Part shown: one piece after another, positions 2,472 through 34,800 of the stretch
How the letters are laid out: each line of letters starts with the position of its first letter
How positions within the stretch are numbered: position 1 is the stretch's first letter
NCBI RefSeq assembly: GCF_014353015.1
Contig: NZ_CP060704.1
Location: forward strand, 1,282,210 to 1,346,209
From: Chitinimonas koreensis
Lineage (GTDB): Bacteria; Pseudomonadota; Gammaproteobacteria; Burkholderiales; Chitinimonadaceae
Length of the DNA: 64,000 nucleotides
Direction of reading: 5' to 3'
The notes under the pieces: model-generated
What the model saw: only the letters and a program-made list of their open reading frames with translations
What the model was told of the DNA's origin: nothing
Databases searched by the model: none
Position numbers and translations under genes: made by a program

Positions 2472-4758
2472 ATGGACCACACCCTGGAGCGCATCGGCCG
2501 CGTGATACGCCGCCATCCGCGCCGCGCCATCGCGCTGTTCGCCCGTGCCGAGGAGAGCGCGCGCGAGGCCGGCGCGCTCGCCTGCCAGCTCGATGCGCTG
2601 TACCAGCGCTATTTCACGCTCGAATACCTGGGCGAGGAGGGCGGCATCGCCGACGCGCTCTACCACGGCCTGCAACTGGCCGAGCAGCACGGCATGGCGC
2701 GCCAGGCCGGCCGCATGCTGGAGGCGATCGGGCGGCTGCGCTATGCCCGCGGCGAGTACCGCGAGGCGGCCCAGTTCTGGGCGCGCTGCCTCGATACCTG
2801 CGCGCTGTCGGGCGATCTGCACGCCGGCATCGAGGCGCGCATCGGCCTCGGCCAGATCTACGACGCGATGGCGACAGCGCCACCGCGGCGCGCTTCCATC
2901 GCGATGCCGGCGAGCTGGCCGACCGGCTCGACGAGCCCTACCTGGCCAGCAAGGTCGCCATCAACCGCGGCTACAACCTGCGCAGCATCGGCGAGGCCGG
3001 CCAGGCCGCCGAGCAGTTCCGCCTGGCGCTGGCGGCAGCCCGCCGCGGCGGCATCAAGGAATACGTGGCCGAGAGCCATTGGCACCTGGGCGCGCTGGCG
3101 CTGGACCAGGGCGATCTGGTGCAGGCCGAGCAGGAGACGCGCACCGCGCTGGCGCTGGCCGAGGCCTCCGGCTACGGCTGGCTGCGCGGCGGCGCCTTCC
3201 GCACGCTGGCCGACATCCTGCTCAAGCAGCGCCGCTTCGACGACGCCAGCGAGGTCTACCGCCGCGCGCTCGAGCATGCGCGCCAGGTCGGCTCGCGCCG
3301 CCAGCAGGCCGATTGCCACGAGGCGTTGTCGGCGCTGGCCGAGGGGCGCGGCGACTACCGCGAGGCGCTCGGCCATGCGCGCCAGCACGCCGCGCTGCAG
3401 GCGGTGCTGCTCGAGCAGCTGGTGGTGGCCGAGCGGCTGCCGGAGCTGCAGCAGTACGACCTGTCGCAGAAGCCGCCGATCGAACAGCTGCTCGACCTGT
3501 CGACCGATGCGCTGCCGCTGGACGCGTCGGCCGCCGGCGCCGCGCTGGAGCCGGCGCTGGAACGCGTGGTGCGCGCCTCGCTGGGCATCCTGCGCATCGA
3601 ATTCGTCGCCATCTGGCTGCGCGAGCGGGCCGGCGCCGATGTGGTCTGCTGCAGCGTGGCCGGCCCGCCCGGCTTGCCGCTGGCGCCGGGGCGGGTGCTG
3701 GCGGCGGCCGAGCTGCCGCTGTACCACCGGCTGCATGCCCAGGTCAGCGATCCGCTGGTGGTGCACGACGCCCGGCTGCACCCGGCGGCGGCCGAGCTGC
3801 CGGCGCTGTTCGGCCCGGCCGGAGTGCGCTCGCTGCTGGAAGTGCCGCTGCGGGTGCGCGGCGACGATCTGGGCTTCGTCAGCTTCGGCCAGCTCGGCGG
3901 CCAGCGGAACTGGACCCGCGACGACGTGCTGTTCGGCACCCACCTGGCCAGCCTGGTCGAGCGCATCCTCGGCCAGCTCGAGCACGTCGCGATCCAGCAG
4001 GCGCTGGAGCGCAGCAACGAGGCGCTGGAACTGAGGGTGGCGCAGCGCACCCGCGAACTCGAGCTGGCCAACCTGGCGCTGGAAGAGGCCAGCCTGACCG
4101 ACCCGCTGACCGGCCTGCGCAACCGCCGCTTCCTGCTGCGCTACCTCGACGCCGACGTGGCGCTGAGCGTGCGCCGCCACGAGGACCGGGCGACCCGCCT
4201 GGTCGACGCCGACCTGCTGTTCTTCCTGGTCGACATCGATCATTTCAAGGCGGTGAACGACCACTGGGCCATGCCGCCGGCGACCAGGTGCTGGTGCAGC
4301 TGTGCGAGCGGCTGCGCCTGGTGGTGCGCGAGGCCGACTACCTGGTGCGCTGGGGCGGCGAGGAATTCCTGGTGGTGGCGCGCGAATCGAACCGCGACAA
4401 GGCGGCGGTGCTGGCCGAGCGGATCCGCCTGGCGGTGGCCGAGCGCGCCTTCAAGCTGGAGGACGGCACCTCGCTGGCGATGAGCTGCTCGATCGGCTTC
4501 GCCTGCTTCCCGTTCGCGCCGACCCGGCCGGCGCAGGCGAGCTGGCCCCAGGTGGTGGACCTGGCCGACCAGGCGCTCTACCTGGCCAAGCACGGCGGCC
4601 GCAACGCCTGGTTCGGCCTGGTCGGCGCGCGTCCGGCCCGGCCCGCGCTGCCCGACGGCCAGGGCGCGCTGCGTGCGGCGGTGCTGCGCGGCGACCTGAA
4701 CGTGGCGACCAGCCTGGCGCCGGCCGCGGTCGAGGCGGCCTGGGCGGCGCTGGGCTGA
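2472..4758 (+). CDS. TPR-repeat / GAF / GGDEF diguanylate cyclase, with two apparent frameshifts (~2870 and ~4270)
   Basis: Three overlapping frames together give MDHTLER..TPR repeats..GAF (EVPLRVRGDDLGFVSF)..GGDEF (RWGGEEF, DHFKAVND, GHAAGD). The shifts fall at CCGCCACCGCGG and CCACTGGGCCATGCCGCC runs. Confidence 0.7.
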
Positions 4759-27807: not shown

Positions 27808-28830
27808 CTAGCCGATCTCGACCAGCCACCTGCCGTCGGCCTGCGCGCTGGCCGCGATCTCCACCGGCAGGAATTTCTCGATGACCGCGATATTGGTCAG
27901 CAGATGCGAAGACGCCGACACCGTGGTGAAGGCGCCGCCTCCCGCCAGGGCCAGCGGCAGCAGCAACTGGTCGGCCAGGTACTCGCCGACGGCCGCGCCG
28001 CTCTCGAGATAGAGCCGGGCCTGCCGCGCCGCATGGTCGGCCACGGCCTCGGCCGATACGCCGCGTTCGCCGAAGCTGGTGAACAGCTCGGTCACCTGCG
28101 CATGCGCCACTTCGATCAGCAGGGCGTTGCCCGGCCCCTCGCCGGCCGGCAGCTCGCGCACCCGGCCGCCCAGGCAGGCCAGTTGCGCGCCGGCGCGTTC
28201 CAGCTCGCGCCGGGCCACGCTGCCGGGGACGGCGGCGACCAGGGCCTCGGCCTTGAGCGCCTGCCGCTCGCCGCGGTCGATCAGCGTGATCGCCTGCAAG
28301 CCGCAGGGCTCGGTCGACGCGACGACCTCGCCGCCGCCGGCCGGGTAGAAGCCGTGCCGGCGCAGGGTGATATCGAGCTTGGCGCCCATGCGCCGGACCA
28401 GCGGCTGCCAGGCCCGGATCAGGAAATCGGCCGGCGGCGCCGCCTTGTTGTGGGTGCCGCCGCTCACCGTCACGGTGCTCGGCGCGTCGGCGAACCACAG
28501 CGCCGGCAGCACGGTCTGCAGCACCAGCGTGCAGCTGCCGGCCGTGCCGATGGCGAGACGGTAGTCGCCGCCGCGGATCGGTCCCGGCGCGAAGCGCAGG
28601 GTCTGCGAGCCGACCGCGGCGCCGTCCACCTGGGCTGACGAGACGGCCGCAGCGGCCTGTACCGCCGTCAGGTGCTGGCGCAGCAGGCCGGGCTTGCTGC
28701 GCTTGGCGCGGATATGTTCGATGCGGAACGGCCGGCCGGTGATCATGGCCAGCGTCAGCGCCGTGCGCAGCACCTGACCGCCGCCTTCGCCCTGTGAGCC
28801 GTCGAGTTCGATGATGTCTTGTTCTTTCAT
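27808..28830 (-). CDS. rtcA: RNA 3'-terminal phosphate cyclase
   Basis: EGGGQVLRTALTLAMITGRPFRIEHIRAKRSKPGL; full-length 340 aa. Confidence 0.9.
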   Translation of the reverse strand: MKEQDIIELDGSQGEGGGQVLRTALTLAMITGRPFRIEHIRAKRSKPGLLRQHLTAVQAAAAVSSAQVDGAAVGSQTLRFAPGPIRGGDYRLAIGTAGSCTLVLQTVLPALWFADAPSTVTVSGGTHNKAAPPADFLIRAWQPLVRRMGAKLDITLRRHGFYPAGGGEVVASTEPCGLQAITLIDRGERQALKAEALVAAVPGSVARRELERAGAQLACLGGRVRELPAGEGPGNALLIEVAHAQVTELFTSFGERGVSAEAVADHAARQARLYLESGAAVGEYLADQLLLPLALAGGGAFTTVSASSHLLTNIAVIEKFLPVEIAASAQADGRWLVEIG

Positions 28831-28903: not shown

Positions 28904-29698
28904 TTAGCAATCACGGATCGCGTTGAACAGCAGTGCATCGAGCGCCGATTCCTCGCCCCCGGGCCGCTTGAAATCCGCCGGCGGCTTGTCGGCAGCCAGT
29001 TCGTGTTCGATGAAGGCGTGGATGCGCGGGAAACGCGCACCGTATTCGGCTTCGCCGGCCGCCATCTTGATCGCCAGCAGCTGGTTGATTTCCTCGCGCA
29101 AGGCCGGATCGGTCACCATCGTGCCGGCCAGTTCGGCGAAGCGCATCGGCGGCATGCCGCGGCCGGTGTCGATCCACTGCGCGGCCAGCAATGGGCGCAG
29201 CACGTAGAGATACTTCTTGAGCCGTACCGTCTCGCCTTGCAGATAGCCGCGGAAATTCTTCTTCGCCATCGCCAGGTAATGCCAGCGCCCCTTGCGTTCG
29301 GAAAAGAATGCCGGTGCCAGGCTCTGCAACTGGCCGGCCACCTGTGCGTCTTCGCGGTAGACGACGGGCGAGTCGAGCCATTCGAACAGCGTCGGATTGG
29401 ACCGCCGTATCAGTTGCAGCGCCTTGCGCAGCTCCCAGCCGCACACGTCGAGCTCGTCGCTGATCGGCACTTCGATGACGTCGCGCTGCGGCTCGACGCG
29501 CAGGTACCAGTCGAGCTCGTGCACGTAGAGAAAGCGTACGTCGTAGTCGCTGTCGGGCGAGGCGAAGCCCCAGCCGCGGCTGCCGGATTCGCAGGCGAAC
29601 AGCACGCGCACGGCGTGGCGCTGCTCGATCGCCGCCAGTTCGGCCTCAATGCGCTGCCGTATTGCCTCATCGATCGGATGAGCGCTCAGAATGGTCAT
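28904..29698 (-). CDS. Pol-beta-superfamily nucleotidyltransferase domain protein, encoded between rtcB and rtcA
   Basis: Minimal NTase motif FACESGSRGWGFASPDSDYDVRFLY (GS...DxD); 264 aa. Confidence 0.6.
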   Translation of the reverse strand: MTILSAHPIDEAIRQRIEAELAAIEQRHAVRVLFACESGSRGWGFASPDSDYDVRFLYVHELDWYLRVEPQRDVIEVPISDELDVCGWELRKALQLIRRSNPTLFEWLDSPVVYREDAQVAGQLQSLAPAFFSERKGRWHYLAMAKKNFRGYLQGETVRLKKYLYVLRPLLAAQWIDTGRGMPPMRFAELAGTMVTDPALREEINQLLAIKMAAGEAEYGARFPRIHAFIEHELAADKPPADFKRPGGEESALDALLFNAIRDC

Positions 29699-29817: not shown

Positions 29818-31032
29818 TCAACCCTTCACGCAGACCACCTGCCGCAAGGTATGCACGATCTCCACCAATTCCGACTGCGCCGCCATCACCTTGTCGATGT
29901 CCTTGTAGGCCATCGGGATCTCGTCGATCACGTCTTCGTCCTTGCGGCACTCGACGTGGGCCGTCGCCTTGATCTGGTCTGCCACGGTGAACAGCTTCCT
30001 GGCCTTGGTGCGGCTCATGGTGCGGCCCGCGCCATGGCTGCACGAGCAGAACGCTTCCTCGTTGCCGAGTCCGCGCACGATGAAGCTCCTGGCGCCCATC
30101 GAGCCGGGGATGATGCCGAGCTGGCCCTTCCGGGCCGACACGGCACCCTTGCGCGTCACCAGCACTTCGCGGCCGAAGTGGGTCTCCTTCTGCACGTAGT
30201 TGTGGTGGCAGTTCACCGCTTCCACGTCGGCGGCGAAGGGCTTGGCGATCACCTTGCGGGCGGCGGCGACGACGTTCTGCATCATCACCGCGCGGTTCCG
30301 CCGGGCGAAGTCCTGCGCCCAGCCGACTGCTTCGACATAGTCGTCGAAGTGCCGGCTGCCTTCCTCGAAGTAGGCCAGGTCGCGATGCGGCAGGTTGGCG
30401 ATGTGCTGGCGCATGTCCGCCTGCGCCAGTTCGATGAACAGGTTGCCGATGGCGTTGCCCACGCCGCGCGAACCCGAGTGCAGCATGAACCAGACGCGGT
30501 TTTCCTCGTCGAGGCAGACCTCGATGAAGTGGTTGCCGGTTCCCAGCGTTCCCAGGTGCTTGTGGTTGTTGGTGCGCTCCAGCTGCGGATGCTTTTCGGT
30601 GATCCGCTTGAAGCCCTGGTGCAGCTCGCCCCACATGGCGTCGACCGTCGCCGGCGGGACCTCCCAGGCGCCCTTGTCGCGCTTGCCCATCGTCTTGCCG
30701 TGCGGGACCGCGGCTTCGATGGCCGAACGCAGGCCGGCCAGGTCGTCGGGCAGGTCCGCGGCGGTCAGTGTGGTGCGGGCGGCCATCATGCCGCAGCCGA
30801 TATCCACCCCGACCGCGGCCGGGATGATGGCACCGAGCGTCGGGATCACGCTGCCGATGGTCGAACCCTTGCCCAGGTGCACGTCCGGCATCACCGCCAG
30901 GTGCTTGTAGATGAAGGGCATCCTGGCCGTGTTCATCAGCTGGGCGCGCGCTTCTTCTTCGACCGGCACGCCTTGGGTCCACATCTTGATCGGGGCGCCG
31001 TGGGGCACGGCGAGAGTGTCGTACTTGTTCAT
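29818..31032 (-). CDS. rtcB: RNA-splicing ligase RtcB
   Basis: MNKYD..; metal-binding His/Cys motifs (HSGSRGVGNAIG, NCHHNY, CSCSHGAGR); 404 aa. Confidence 0.95.
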   Translation of the reverse strand: MNKYDTLAVPHGAPIKMWTQGVPVEEEARAQLMNTARMPFIYKHLAVMPDVHLGKGSTIGSVIPTLGAIIPAAVGVDIGCGMMAARTTLTAADLPDDLAGLRSAIEAAVPHGKTMGKRDKGAWEVPPATVDAMWGELHQGFKRITEKHPQLERTNNHKHLGTLGTGNHFIEVCLDEENRVWFMLHSGSRGVGNAIGNLFIELAQADMRQHIANLPHRDLAYFEEGSRHFDDYVEAVGWAQDFARRNRAVMMQNVVAAARKVIAKPFAADVEAVNCHHNYVQKETHFGREVLVTRKGAVSARKGQLGIIPGSMGARSFIVRGLGNEEAFCSCSHGAGRTMSRTKARKLFTVADQIKATAHVECRKDEDVIDEIPMAYKDIDKVMAAQSELVEIVHTLRQVVCVKG

Positions 31033-31391
31033 TGCCTGTTTTCCTTGATCGTTCCCGCCATTTTCCGGCGCCGTGCCTGGCGGCAGGCGAGGCAGCGGAC
31101 GGCGGTCGTATACACATCGCCCTGGGCGGTTTCGTACCACCATTGCTGCTGTTCTGCTGTCCATACCTGGTGCGCGCCGCAATCGCGGCAGGTGAAGGCC
31201 AGGTCCTCGTAGTAACCGCGCCCGACGAATGCGGGCGCCCAGTCGCTGCAGTGGGGCGCCAGGAGTGCCAGATTGACCTGCCTGGCTCTCTTGGGTCGGA
31301 CCGCTGCGGGGGCGATCGGCGTCGCTGCTTCCCGCCGCGCCTGGCGTCGCGCCATGATGGCGGCCCGTTTCTGTTTTCCGCTTCGCATCAT
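31029..31391 (-). CDS. Small basic zinc-ribbon protein; stop overlaps the rtcB start
   Basis: CRDCGAHQ...CLACRQ (CxxC..CxxC), Lys/Arg-rich N-terminus. ATGA overlap with rtcB. Confidence 0.45.
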   Translation of the reverse strand: MMRSGKQKRAAIMARRQARREAATPIAPAAVRPKRARQVNLALLAPHCSDWAPAFVGRGYYEDLAFTCRDCGAHQVWTAEQQQWWYETAQGDVYTTAVRCLACRQARRRKMAGTIKENRQ

Positions 31392-31432: not shown

Positions 31433-32569
31433 CTAGGCTTTCAGTTTCACCAGTCCGTTCAGCAACTGGTCGAGGCCGCCGAATACCGAGATCTTGTCGA
31501 TCCGCTCGGCCAGCCGTTCCAGCGTTTCCAGCTCCTTGAGCCGCAGGGCCGTCGGGTTGTCTTCCATCACCTTGGCGGTGTTCAGCAAGGAGCGGGTCGC
31601 CCCGGTTTCCTCGCGCCGGCGGATCACGTTGGCCTGGGCCGCCTTCTCGGCCTCGACCACCTGGGCCAGCAGCGCCTTCATCTCGCCGGGCAGCACGATG
31701 TCCTTCACGCCCAGGCTGGTCACCTTCACGCCGAAGCCCTGCAGCTTGGCGTCCAGGTGGCGGCTCACCACCTCGTCCACCAGCTGCTTGTTCTCCAGCA
31801 GCTCGTCGAGCGTACGGGTGCCGACGGCGGCGCGCAGGCCGAACTGCAGCTCGCGGTAGATGTGCTCGGCCGGCTTGGGCAGGCAGGAATACGCCAGCTC
31901 GACGTCGTCGAAGTACCAGGTGGCCGCCAGGTTGATGCGCAGGCTCACCTTGTCGCGGGTCAGGATTTCCTGGCCGCCGACTTCCAGCGCCTGCAGGCGG
32001 GTATCCACCAGCTCGACCGCGATGTCGCGGTTGAAGCGCCAGTAGCCGTAGCGCCCCGGCTGCAGCAGCCGGGCCAGCTTGCCGTCCACCCGCAGCAGGC
32101 CGAGATGGAACGCCGGCACCTGCACGTTCAGCACCGCGCCGAGGCCGGCGATGGAACGGCCGCGCAGGCCGGGCTGGGCCATGCGCGCCAGCAGCTCGGC
32201 CGGGACTTCGCAGCCCTCGTTCAGCGCCACGCGCTCCAGGCGTTGCGGCGCGGCGGATTTCCAGTACAGCTTGCGCGAGCCCGGCGGCAGGATTTCCGCC
32301 AGCGCCTCGTTTTCGAAGCGCAGCCCCGCTTCCTCGTCGCCGAGGTCGAACACCTGGAACTGGTCGGCGATCAGGGCCGGCTCGTTGCGCCGCAGGTAGT
32401 CGGCCAGCGGGTGTTCGAACAGCGCCGTTTCCAGCGGGAAGGCGCAGACGCTGTAGCGCTTGTTCGGATCGAACAGCCGGATTTCGCCCGGCGCCAGCAG
32501 GCGCTGGAAATCGCCGTCGCGCAGCAGGAGTGCGCGTTCGTTCTTACGGATGAGGAAGCGTTGCCACAT
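31433..32569 (-). CDS. SPFH/band-7 (stomatin/slipin-like) domain protein
   Basis: Band-7 core (VKDIVLPGEMKALLAQVVEAEKAAQANVIRRREETGA) with long N-terminal extension; 378 aa. Confidence 0.7.
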   Translation of the reverse strand: MWQRFLIRKNERALLLRDGDFQRLLAPGEIRLFDPNKRYSVCAFPLETALFEHPLADYLRRNEPALIADQFQVFDLGDEEAGLRFENEALAEILPPGSRKLYWKSAAPQRLERVALNEGCEVPAELLARMAQPGLRGRSIAGLGAVLNVQVPAFHLGLLRVDGKLARLLQPGRYGYWRFNRDIAVELVDTRLQALEVGGQEILTRDKVSLRINLAATWYFDDVELAYSCLPKPAEHIYRELQFGLRAAVGTRTLDELLENKQLVDEVVSRHLDAKLQGFGVKVTSLGVKDIVLPGEMKALLAQVVEAEKAAQANVIRRREETGATRSLLNTAKVMEDNPTALRLKELETLERLAERIDKISVFGGLDQLLNGLVKLKA

Positions 32570-32828
32570 ATTGTTTTTCTCCTGTTTTCGAATGAGCCGG
32601 CGGTCGCCGATCCGGCCGGGAGGCGGAATGGCCGGCAAGGGTGCGGACGGGCTTCGTGCTGGTCTGTCACGCGACACCTGGCCTGCCAGTGTCGATCGCT
32701 CAGTCACAGCGTCGTGCCTGTCTCTGCCTTGCGGCGATTCCCGTCCCGGGCCGGATCGGCGGCGACGTCGCCGTCGCACCGGGTACTGCCTGTTGCTGCT
32801 TCAAGTCACCTTGTCAGGTGGTTTCGAG

Positions 32829-32901
32829 CGGGAGTCGAACCCGCGACACGCTGATCGGAACCAGCTGCTCTACCCATTGAGCTATCGAATGGCGGCGATT
32901 C
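32829..32901 (-). ncRNA. tRNA-like RNA B (near-complete cloverleaf, anticodon loop TTCCGAT = Arg-CCG-like; acceptor stem imperfect)
   Basis: D-arm GCTCAATGGGTAGAGC, T-arm GCGGGTTCGACTCCCGC, 3' ..CCA. The anticodon stem is 1 nt short (possible indel) and two acceptor pairs are mismatched. Confidence 0.5.
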
Positions 32902-32948
32902 CGGGAATCGAACCCGGAGCGAGCTGCCCGCATCGCCGATGACCGTCT
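32900..32948 (-). ncRNA. tRNA-like minihelix A (acceptor stem + T-arm + CCA only)
   Basis: 5'-CGGCGAT-GCGGGCAGCTCGCT-CCGGGTTCGATTCCCGG-A-ATCGCCG-CCA. Perfect 7 bp acceptor-like stem; no D or anticodon arm. Confidence 0.4.
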
Positions 32949-33057
32949 CCTCGTCGCCGCGGCATGTACGTCCACGACTGGACTGGTGGCGTACACCGGA
33001 GCGGCATCGGAACCGCTGCCCGTCGGCGTGCGCCGATTCGGCGGTCGAGGCTTCCAT

Positions 33058-33217: not shown

Positions 33218-34800
33218 ATGAAGAAGAACGTCGTATTCGGATTCGTCGGCACCGTGCTGGACTACGTCGGCCGCGGCAGGGATCGCTGGAAGAAATGGCG
33301 GCCGACCATCGGCCTGTGCCAGCAGGAGGATTTGCTGGTCGACCGGCTGGAGCTGCTGCACGACAGCCGGAGCCGCAGCCTGTACGAGCGGCTCAAGGCC
33401 GATATCGCCGCGGTGTCGCCGGAGACCGAGGTGGTGAGCGTCGAAGTCGATCTGCGCGACCCGTGGGATTTCGAGGAGGTCTACGGCCTGCTGCACGACC
33501 TGGCGCGCGGCTACGACTTCGATACCGAGGCCGAGAACTACCTGGTCCACATCACCACCGGCACCCACGTGGCGCAGATCTGCTGGTTCCTGCTGGCCGA
33601 GGCGCGCTACCTGCCGGCCAGGCTGGTGCAGACCTCGCCGCCGCGCAACAAGGAGCAGGGCGACAGCGCCGGCAGCCATGCGGTGATCGATCTCGACCTG
33701 TCGCGCTATGACCGGATCGCGACCCGCTTCGCCCGCGAGCAGGCCGAGACGGTGTCCTTCCTGAAGTCCGGCATCGCCACCCGCAATGCCGGCTTCAACC
33801 GCATGATCGAGCAGATCGAGCGGGTGGCGGTGCGCTCGAAGGCGCCGATGCTGTTCTGCGGTCCGACCGGGGCAGGCAAGTCCTTCCTGGCGCGGCGGGT
33901 ATACGAGATGAAGAAGGTCCGGCACCGGTTGGCCGGCCGCTTCGTCGAGGTCAATTGCGCCACTTTGCGCGGGGACAGCGCCATGTCGGCCCTGTTCGGC
34001 CATGTGAAAGGCGCCTTCACCGGCGCCCAGTCCGAGCGTGCCGGCCTGCTGCGCAGCGCCGACGGCGGCCTGCTGTTCCTGGACGAGATCGGCGAACTGG
34101 GCCTGGACGAGCAGGCCATGCTGCTCAAGGCCATCGAGGAGAAGCGTTTCTTCCCCTCGGCGGCGACCGCGAGGTGGGCAGCGATTTCCAGCTGATCGCC
34201 GGCACGGTGCGCGATCTCAGGCAGTGGGTGGCCGAGGGCCGGTTCCGCGAGGATCTGTACGCCCGGATCAACCTGTGGACCTATGAATTGCCCGGCCTGG
34301 CCGATCGCGCCGAGGACATCGAGCCCAACCTGGAGTTCGAGCTGGCGCGCTTTGCCGGCGAGCACGGCGAGCAGGTGCGGTTCAATGCCGAGGCCAAGCG
34401 CGCCTACCTGAAGTTCGCCGGATCGGCCGAGGCCAGGTGGTCGGGCAATTTCCGCGAGCTGTCCGCCTCGGTCACCCGCATGGCCACCCTGGCCGAGGCG
34501 GGGCGCATCACCGAGACCTGCGTGCAGGAGGAGATCGGACGCCTGCGCCACGCCTGGGGCGGCGCCGAGCGGAGCGCGCTGGAGAGCGTGCTGGGCGAAC
34601 GGCTGCAGGCGCTCGACCTGTTCGACCGGCTGCAGCTGGAAAGCGTGGTCGACGTCTGCCGCCGGTCGAGCTCGCTGTCGGATGCCGGCCGGCGCCTGTT
34701 CGGCATATCGCGGCAGGAGAAGGCCAAGGCCAACGATGCGGACCGGTTGCGCAAATACCTGGCCCGCTTCGATCTGAGCTGGGCGGCCGTGCGCGGGTAG
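33218..34800 (+). CDS. rtcR: Sigma-54-dependent transcriptional regulator RtcR (CARF + AAA+ + HTH), with a frameshift near 34160
   Basis: N-terminal CARF-like domain, Walker A GPTGAGKS, GAFTGA motif. C-terminal HTH in the 33955..34800 frame. Confidence 0.85.

Follow-up and report, generated by a model that had tools for sequence, protein, structure and literature searches.

The window analysed here is a 64,000-nucleotide (nt) stretch of the Chitinimonas koreensis genome (contig NZ_CP060704.1, positions 1,282,210 to 1,346,209 of the forward strand). On its minus strand it carries an RNA-repair operon with genes for an SPFH/Band-7 protein, RtcB, RlaP and RtcA, and the gene for the regulator RtcR lies divergently upstream. 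Between rtcR and the SPFH gene are two units that resemble transfer RNA (tRNA), here termed elements A and B, followed by a small hairpin, C. An initial annotation of this DNA had reported two tRNA-like elements at this site, though not hairpin C, and had suggested that they could be tRNA mimics. Both the placement in an RtcR/sigma-54-controlled RNA-repair locus and the view that the units are mimics rather than working tRNAs are supported by the present analysis. The parts of the units are as follows.

32890-32938, minus strand: element A, an acceptor/T-arm minihelix of 49 nt (sequence reading)
32938-32931, minus strand: 5′ strand of element A, CGGCGATG
32930-32918, minus strand: middle hairpin of element A, variable
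32917-32901, minus strand: T-arm of element A, CCGGG-TTCGATT-CCCGG
32900-32893, minus strand: 3′ strand of element A, AATCGCCG
32893-32890, minus strand: tail of element A, (G)CCA
32823-32889, minus strand: element B, a tRNA-like cloverleaf of 67 nt (Rfam tRNA model, ARAGORN, covariation)
32889-32885 with 32827-32823, minus strand: acceptor of element B, 5 base pairs (bp), TTCGA with TCGAA
32882-32867, minus strand: D-arm of element B, GCTC-AATGGGTA-GAGC
32865-32850, minus strand: ‘anticodon’ arm of element B, GCUGGU-UCCG-AUCAGC, 16 nt, 6 bp and a UNCG-type tetraloop
32849-32845, minus strand: variable loop of element B
32844-32828, minus strand: T-arm of element B, GCGGG-TTCGACT-CCCGC
32820-32807, minus strand: hairpin C, CACCU-GACA-AGGUG, directly 3′ of element B (5 of 5 pairs covary)

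All of the motifs that the initial annotation had listed, namely the stem, small hairpin, T-arm and CCA of A and the D-arm, T-arm and TTCCGAT of B, are present on the minus strand. The boundaries had been drawn 6-10 nt away from those given above (A at 32900-32948 and B at 32829-32901), and the 2-nt overlap described between the units does not exist: they abut, the GCCA tail of A (32893-32890) directly preceding the first paired base of B at 32889. Element A has a 7-bp acceptor stem (CGGCGAT/ATCGCCG), and neither a D-arm nor an anticodon arm. The anticodon stem of B had been called one nucleotide short, but is really the tetraloop-capped hairpin listed above; likewise, its acceptor does not contain two mismatches but is a 5-bp stem, rather than a 7-bp one, that is conserved in relatives. 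The ACCA that the window shows after B belongs to hairpin C and lacks conservation in relatives.

Against the Rfam tRNA model, element B scores 43.3 bits (gathering score 29) over 32823-32889, covering model positions 3-68, while the seven real tRNAs of the window all score above it (48.8-73.1 bits). ARAGORN places a ‘tRNA-???’ at 32820-32891 for B, giving it a 2-nt anticodon. The window contains seven copies of the T-loop motif GGTTCRANYCC, where 0.31 would be expected; five belong to tRNA genes and the other two to A and B. Element A gives a weak match to the Rfam mascRNA-menRNA family (22.9 bits, E = 0.066) and weak matches to the T-arms of tmRNA; RAGATH-10 and other weak Rfam matches, with E of ~1 or more, were disregarded. 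Both the minimum-free-energy and the centroid folds retain the stem, hairpin and T-arm of A and the D- and T-stems of B. The 141-nt stretch does not stand out from its shuffles in stability (z = -0.38), and it is thus conservation and covariation, rather than the energy of folding, that speak against chance.

Covariation of the tandem fold

Close homologues of the SPFH protein (‘slipin family’) number in the thousands and are found in Chitinibacteraceae, Chromobacterium, Burkholderia, Cupriavidus, Rhodocyclales, Pseudomonas and Xenorhabdus. From ~590 loci found, a comparison sample of 80 genomic loci from beta- and gamma-proteobacteria was taken. Most of them share the gene order rtcR, an intergenic region of ~650 nt, SPFH and RtcB, with RlaP and RtcA present in some. 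When the A and B sequence of the window was used as an nhmmer query, 70 of the 80 loci gave a homologue, located 260-400 nt ahead of the SPFH start. The module takes two main forms: type I (49 loci and the window, mostly beta-proteobacteria) consists of minihelix A, cloverleaf B and hairpin C, whereas type II (21 Pseudomonas loci) has two full tRNA-like cloverleaves, essentially without a spacer, and then hairpin C. Three tRNA-like units in tandem are kept in some relatives. A conserved ‘GGTC’ leader block precedes the first unit in both types; A thus takes the place of the first cloverleaf of type II and is its positional homologue.

Plain MAFFT mis-registered the 5′ strand of A; nine type I sequences with the same spacing served to build a covariance model of the tandem structure, to which the 50 type I sequences (49 loci and the window) were aligned. 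It should be noted that an alignment fitted to the tandem structure yields pair counts that favour the tandem fold, and that shuffle and slide controls serve as the safeguard. The tandem fold is paired in 95.7% of cells, compared to 78.1% in shuffles, and none of 500 shuffles reaches the observed value. Compensatory changes on both sides occur in 25 of its 35 pairs (300 cells), and its covariation score is 0.508, as opposed to 0.167 in shuffles (0 of 500 reach it) and at most 0.094 in slid controls. The covarying pairs are spread over both units and all five pairs of hairpin C: all six modelled pairs of the A acceptor and three of five in the A T-stem, together with five of five in the ‘anticodon’ stem, three of five in the T stem and three of five in the acceptor of B, the D stem of B being invariant.

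The initial annotation had also considered a Y-RNA-like role, and the same sequences were scored for a YrlA-like fold. Its YrlA-specific helices are paired in 42.9% of cells compared to 42.7% in shuffles, with 208 of 500 shuffles at least as high, and its covariation score (0.123) equals that of shuffles (0.123). Given these controls and the gap between the two folds, the conclusion is safe despite the fitted alignment: the tandem fold is strongly supported by covariation.

Loop variability and plasticity among relatives

The initial annotation had described the anticodon loop of B as Arg-CCG-like. The loop does hold CCG in the window, but the equivalent loop varies between loci: depending on the locus, the ARAGORN assignment of B is Met, Ile, Val, Thr, Leu, Arg, Phe, Asn, Ser, Pro, Gln, ‘Stop’ or none at all. 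Of the 50 type I sequences, 23 have loops of 7 nt (with 12 different triplets), 17 have loops of 6 nt, 4 of 5 nt, 5 of 4 nt and 1 of 17 nt, and tetraloops elsewhere are of the GNRA type in Burkholderia and UUCG in many Pseudomonas units. Since its ‘anticodon’ differs between loci or is replaced by a tetraloop, B does not decode. B does have the D-arm and T-arm of a canonical tRNA with the elbow nucleotides, but it lacks the 7-bp acceptor with discriminator and CCA end, and its orthologues share no conserved 7-nt anticodon loop. The acceptor is 4-5 bp long in most type I relatives, as in the window (5 bp), without a conserved 3′ CCA. The GCUC/GAGC D-arm, G18G19 and the GGUUCGAnUCC T-loop are nearly invariant, whereas the position of the anticodon loop is free, which argues for selection on the tRNA body and elbow and not on decoding.

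Between the units, a CCA is found inside the A-B linker in 22 of the 50 loci, a frequency that we roughly estimate, without computing it, to be well above chance for a linker of 4-5 nt. This hints that A may be released with a tRNA-like 3′ end.

Hairpin C is also variable at its tip. It carries a 7-nt loop in 43 of 73 loci (e.g. L042 from ~3757, L014 and L034), and is tetraloop-like in the window and in Burkholderia. Of the 7-nt loops, 38 of 43 read CU-NNN-A-[AC], the signature of an anticodon loop, with 15 triplets that differ between close Pseudomonas relatives. Among such relatives, variation peaks in the B and C loops; other apical loops of the leader are equally variable, however, and relaxed constraint could therefore account for the loop variability without an arms race.

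In Pseudomonas aeruginosa (L081, 2120-2250), a bare hairpin, CGCGAA...TTCGCG, stands in first place, followed by B and then C. Unit A is thereby plastic in evolution, appearing as full cloverleaf, minihelix or bare hairpin, which is possibly new. The P. aeruginosa B unit is annotated as the tRNA-Arg gene PA4581.1 and, in strain PAO1, lies between rtcR (PA4581) and PA4582-PA4585. It is the positional and sequence homologue of B: its acceptor is GTTCGA/TCGAAC, and it shares with the window the D- and T-arms, the hairpin C that follows and the leader blocks. It differs from the B of the window in having the 7-nt loop CCACGAA (read as anticodon ACG) instead of a tetraloop, and in being preceded by the bare hairpin instead of a T-arm-bearing minihelix. 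PA4581.1 has G20, and a 2026 paper describes it as lacking CCA and having an unusual D-loop, and reports it by quantitative reverse-transcription PCR at about half the level of a canonical tRNA. Genes like PA4581.1 are not tRNA-Arg genes.

In loci of Comamonadaceae type, which have no upstream rtcR, 1-13 canonical tRNA genes are located 0.8-2.8 kb upstream of the module, SPFH and RtcB. There are arrays at L076 1135-2813 (13 genes), L078 2145-2705 (6) and L079 2491-2753 (2), and single genes at L045 2145-2222 and L075 104-179. The L076 array comprises tRNAs for Gly, Glu, Asp, Phe, Arg, Asn, Ile, Pro, His, Lys, Leu, Met and Arg. These arrays may form, together with the module, a combined ‘spare tRNA plus repair’ island.

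The leader and the repair operon

Since a sigma-54 motif lies upstream and the minus strand has no predicted intrinsic terminator from hairpin C to the SPFH gene, A and B probably belong to a leader of ~480 nt at the start of the operon mRNA. The features of this leader and the surrounding genes are listed below.

33073-33058, minus strand: sigma-54-type promoter TGGCACGCATCTCGCA, divergent from rtcR (one mismatch to TGGCAC-N5-TTGC)
33031-33043, minus strand: conserved leader hairpin H0, upstream of element A
33000-33017, minus strand: leader hairpin H1, with the T-loop-like loop TTCCGAT (RNAalifold, 41 loci)
32961-32997, minus strand: leader hairpin H2, with the conserved base GGUG.../...AUGCC (RNAalifold, 41 loci)
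32605-32789, minus strand: 3′ leader domain (RNAalifold on 19 loci)
32779-32789, minus strand: conserved block GCAGTACCCGG (also given as GCAGUACCCGG), downstream of hairpin C
32745-32761 with 32605-32620, minus strand: long-range helix of 16-17 bp enclosing a variable region
31433-32569, minus strand: SPFH/Band-7 (‘slipin’) gene, the first gene after the leader (Pfam Band_7, E = 5.5e-25)
29818-31062, minus strand: rtcB (Pfam RtcB, E = 1e-129)
28904-29686, minus strand: rlaP, nucleotidyltransferase gene (Pfam RlaP, E = 1.3e-97)
27808-28830, minus strand: rtcA (Pfam RTC, E = 9.1e-81)
33218-34800, plus strand: rtcR (CARF domain and sigma-54 activator), divergent (Pfam RtcR and Sigma54_activat in two separate frames)

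The sigma-54 pattern is not enriched across the window (3 matches compared to 5.3 expected). Among 81 sequences, i.e. the 80 loci and the window, 68 have the motif 450-575 nt upstream of the SPFH start, and transcription is predicted to start there. On the 5′ side of A, the H1 and H2 region (32961-33017) forms 18 pairs in the RNAalifold analysis of 41 loci, 14 of them with compensatory changes. The H1 loop TTCCGAT is the same 7-mer as that in the ‘anticodon’ arm of B. On the 3′ side, the domain downstream of C forms 20 pairs in 19 loci, 16 with compensatory changes, and its long-range helix ends ~20 nt ahead of the ribosome-binding site. The folding energy of the whole leader gives z = -3.12, and neither its 5′ nor its 3′ part has an Rfam match. 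The leader as a whole is a conserved structured RNA, possibly a new one.

The SPFH gene, which lies on the same strand as element B, begins ~250 nt downstream of its end. The SPFH protein has ~150 residues ahead of its Pfam Band_7 match and a maximum 19-residue Kyte-Doolittle hydropathy of 1.45; as it apparently has no transmembrane helix, it may be soluble. Neither the operon nor the flanking 4 kb on each side contains an Rsr/TROVE gene, the proteins encoded there being RtcA, RlaP, RtcB, SPFH, RtcR, GFA and ADH, and the immediate neighbourhood gave no integrase match.

The reading frame of rtcR is broken near 34153-34156, as judged by tblastn with an intact relative. At 34147-34160 (plus strand) the window has a run of four C where relatives have five (CCC CTC, ..FFPLGGDRE..), a loss of 1 nt in a C homopolymer. 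The frame change is either an assembly error or a real pseudogene; with it, the assembly contains at least one probable homopolymer indel.

Affiliation and candidate functions of the tRNA-like domains

A predicted tRNA-like non-coding RNA termed b7a-tRNA, encoded in some bacteria beside Band-7 and RtcB genes and interchangeable with YrlA in gene neighbourhoods, is attributed to Burroughs and Aravind (2016) in bioRxiv 10.1101/312249. A full-text literature search found no account of b7a-tRNA beyond this secondary description. The window element is likewise tRNA-like (43.3 bits on the Rfam model, an ARAGORN call and a covarying cloverleaf), adjacent to a Band-7/SPFH gene on the same strand, and set in an RtcB repair neighbourhood with SPFH, RtcB, RlaP and RtcA downstream and RtcR divergent; b7a-tRNA, as relayed there, is predicted to take the part that YrlA plays in Rsr operons. 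By the description in bioRxiv 10.1101/312249, and on these sequence features, the region is a local copy of the b7a-tRNA module. Compared with b7a-tRNA as that secondary source presents it, three features may be new: a first unit in the form of a minihelix, the plasticity of the units as modules, and a leader that is both structured and conserved.

We lean towards a role of the tRNA-shaped domains as non-decoding mimics that would act with the repair proteins, a reading we hold to be somewhat better than even. The leader would be transcribed when RtcR activates the operon, i.e. when damaged tRNA ends accumulate. Its two tRNA-shaped domains would then be recognised by enzymes that read the acceptor, T-arm and elbow, and RNase P together with 3′-processing or CCA enzymes would excise A and B. 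The products would be stable tRNA mimics, neither aminoacylated nor decoded. Together with the operon proteins they could support end-healing and ligation, either as a tRNA-shaped platform or as a cofactor, in line with what has been proposed for YrlA and b7a-tRNA. An acceptor/T-arm minihelix, the form taken by A, is a minimal substrate of RNase P and CCA enzymes. The mascRNA of MALAT1 and the tRNA-like domain of tmRNA resemble A in combining an acceptor, a T-arm and a CCA-like tail. A differs from them in being bacterial, in lying in an mRNA leader and in being fused to a second tRNA-like unit, and its matches to these families are below gathering scores and driven mostly by the T-arm.

Several observations weigh against this role. 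Both units give way to plain hairpins in five loci (L017, L019, L023, L065 and L073, at ~3650-3760), which belong to P. donghuensis, P. aegrilactucae, P. rubra and two strains of P. entomophila; the rest of the leader and the operon are kept. Because these five loci have lost both units and P. aeruginosa keeps B alone, the tRNA shape is dispensable in some lineages. No SPFH residues specific to the lineages without tRNA-like units were found, the result being the same as in control clades, which gives no support for an obligate pairing of SPFH and tRNA-like RNA. The PA4581.1 signal does not change when the Rtc proteins are strongly induced, which is at odds with simple co-transcription from the sigma-54 promoter, although quantitative reverse-transcription PCR of a tRNA-like sequence is weak evidence. 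In B, the acceptor and T stack amounts to 10 bp rather than 12, and its recognition by RNase P or CCA enzymes is accordingly uncertain. Finally, if the rtcR frameshift is real, the operon may be silent in the window. As loss of the units leaves no mark on SPFH, and the remaining leader stays conserved, the tRNA-like part is more likely an effector module than an SPFH-binding site. For the mimics, a partner that recognises tRNA (RtcB, RlaP, RtcA or a housekeeping factor) is accordingly favoured over the SPFH protein.

Some of the same observations would fit units that act purely in cis, as processing or stability signals of the operon mRNA that affect its half-life or the translation of SPFH and rtcB, with no function as free RNAs. 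The mascRNA-type tRNA-like element, for instance, marks an RNase P cut in MALAT1, and the weak mascRNA-menRNA match of A is in keeping with such a signal. The units also lie inside a leader with covarying 5′ and 3′ domains and no terminator before the SPFH gene, helices persist at the same positions in lineages without cloverleaves, and SPFH is unaltered by their loss. A cleavage signal, however, leaves the near-invariant D- and T-arms and G18G19 of B unexplained, as well as the presence of two or three units in tandem, and PA4581.1 is found at about half the canonical tRNA level without induction of the operon; we consider a purely cis role possible but rather unlikely. A decoy or sentinel for anticodon nucleases and other tRNA-targeting nucleases, whose cut would deliver fragments with 2′,3′-cyclic phosphates to the CARF domain of RtcR before resealing by RtcB, seems unlikely to us. 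RtcR does sense cyclic-phosphate tRNA fragments, and a competitive-inhibitor role was suggested for YrlA (Hughes 2020); the anticodon-loop look-alikes at the tip of hairpin C in relatives, the 7-nt loops in nearly half of the B units, the concentration of variation in these loops among close Pseudomonas relatives and the flanking tRNA gene arrays of some loci would all suit a decoy. On the other hand, the UCCG and GACA loops of the window are tetraloop-like, as are the GNRA loops of Burkholderia and the UUCG loops of many Pseudomonas, and such loops cannot mimic an anticodon loop, while the equal variability of the other apical loops points to relaxed constraint. A broader version, to which we give slightly less credence still, would make an undescribed leader RNA of SPFH-rtcB operons, ~480 nt long, the main structure, built of a T-loop-like hairpin, the GGUG/AUGCC helix, the tRNA-like units, an anticodon-stem-loop look-alike and the long-range helix, with the tRNA look-alikes as its exchangeable ‘plug-in’. 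Its tRNA- and anticodon-loop-shaped parts would be sacrificial sensors of tRNA-cutting toxins; once cut, they would release a tRNA-like fragment with a cyclic phosphate, which would turn RtcR on until resealing by RtcB resets the system.

Two further explanations concern what the units are rather than what they do. YrlA (RF02553) shares with the window element the rtc-operon setting and consensus D- and T-arms without decoding (Rfam consensus UAGCUCA..GGUAGAGC and GCGGGuUCGAgaCCCGC, compared to UAGCUCAAUGGGUAGAGC and GCGGGUUCGACUCCCGC in B), and Rfam does report a YrlA match at 32837-32939 (30.1 bits, E = 3.3e-4). However, this falls far short of the gathering score (69), and the match arises by joining the T-arm of A to the D-arm of B, a known type of false positive for tandem tRNAs (Chen et al. 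2014). YrlA itself is one circularly permuted tRNA-like domain with an Rsr-binding closing stem containing GNCGAAN0-1G, and is encoded beside rsr. The window instead has two units of ordinary order, no conserved closing stem or permuted fold, and no TROVE gene on the same strand within 4 kb; the YrlA-specific helices pair at shuffle level without excess covariation, and the fold would destroy the covarying T-arm of B. A YrlA-type Y RNA is therefore hardly credible, and YrlA membership was rejected as far as sequence analysis permits. The initial annotation had offered as another option the remnant of an integration into a tRNA-Arg gene, and a decaying or mis-sequenced tRNA-Arg next to an integration fragment of a mobile element would agree with the CCG in the B loop, the tRNA-Arg annotation of the P. 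aeruginosa homologue, ARAGORN calls of Arg(ACG/CCG) in some Pseudomonas loci and the probable indel in the assembly. Yet the module keeps the same architecture and the same rtcR-SPFH position in 70 of 80 loci from two proteobacterial classes, with compensatory changes in all variable helices, and this combination effectively excludes such an origin, which is also highly improbable given the differing ‘anticodons’ of orthologues and the lack of an integrase match nearby. Correcting an indel would not turn B into a normal tRNA, as its 5-bp acceptor and odd loops are family traits, and A, for its part, has covariation support of its own.

The locus provides a structural definition, with covariation support, of the SPFH-linked version of these RNAs, and supplies concrete RNAs of ~50 and ~70 nt, and concrete mutants, to test. 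These bear on two questions, namely which substrates RtcB repairs in bacteria, and for what reason tRNA-shaped RNAs (YrlA or b7a-tRNA) accompany Rsr or SPFH scaffolds in its operons.

For annotation, the locus is a warning regarding both ‘tRNA-Arg’ genes of the PA4581.1 type and SPFH start codons, which are sometimes called across the RNA. Eleven entries of the SPFH family (P0012, P0013, P0017, P0021, P0026, P0028, P0033, P0037, P0080, P0112 and P0114) are 511-591 amino acids long, compared to the usual ~380. Their extra N-terminal length probably reflects misplaced start codons, set so far upstream that the frame runs across the tRNA-like leader.

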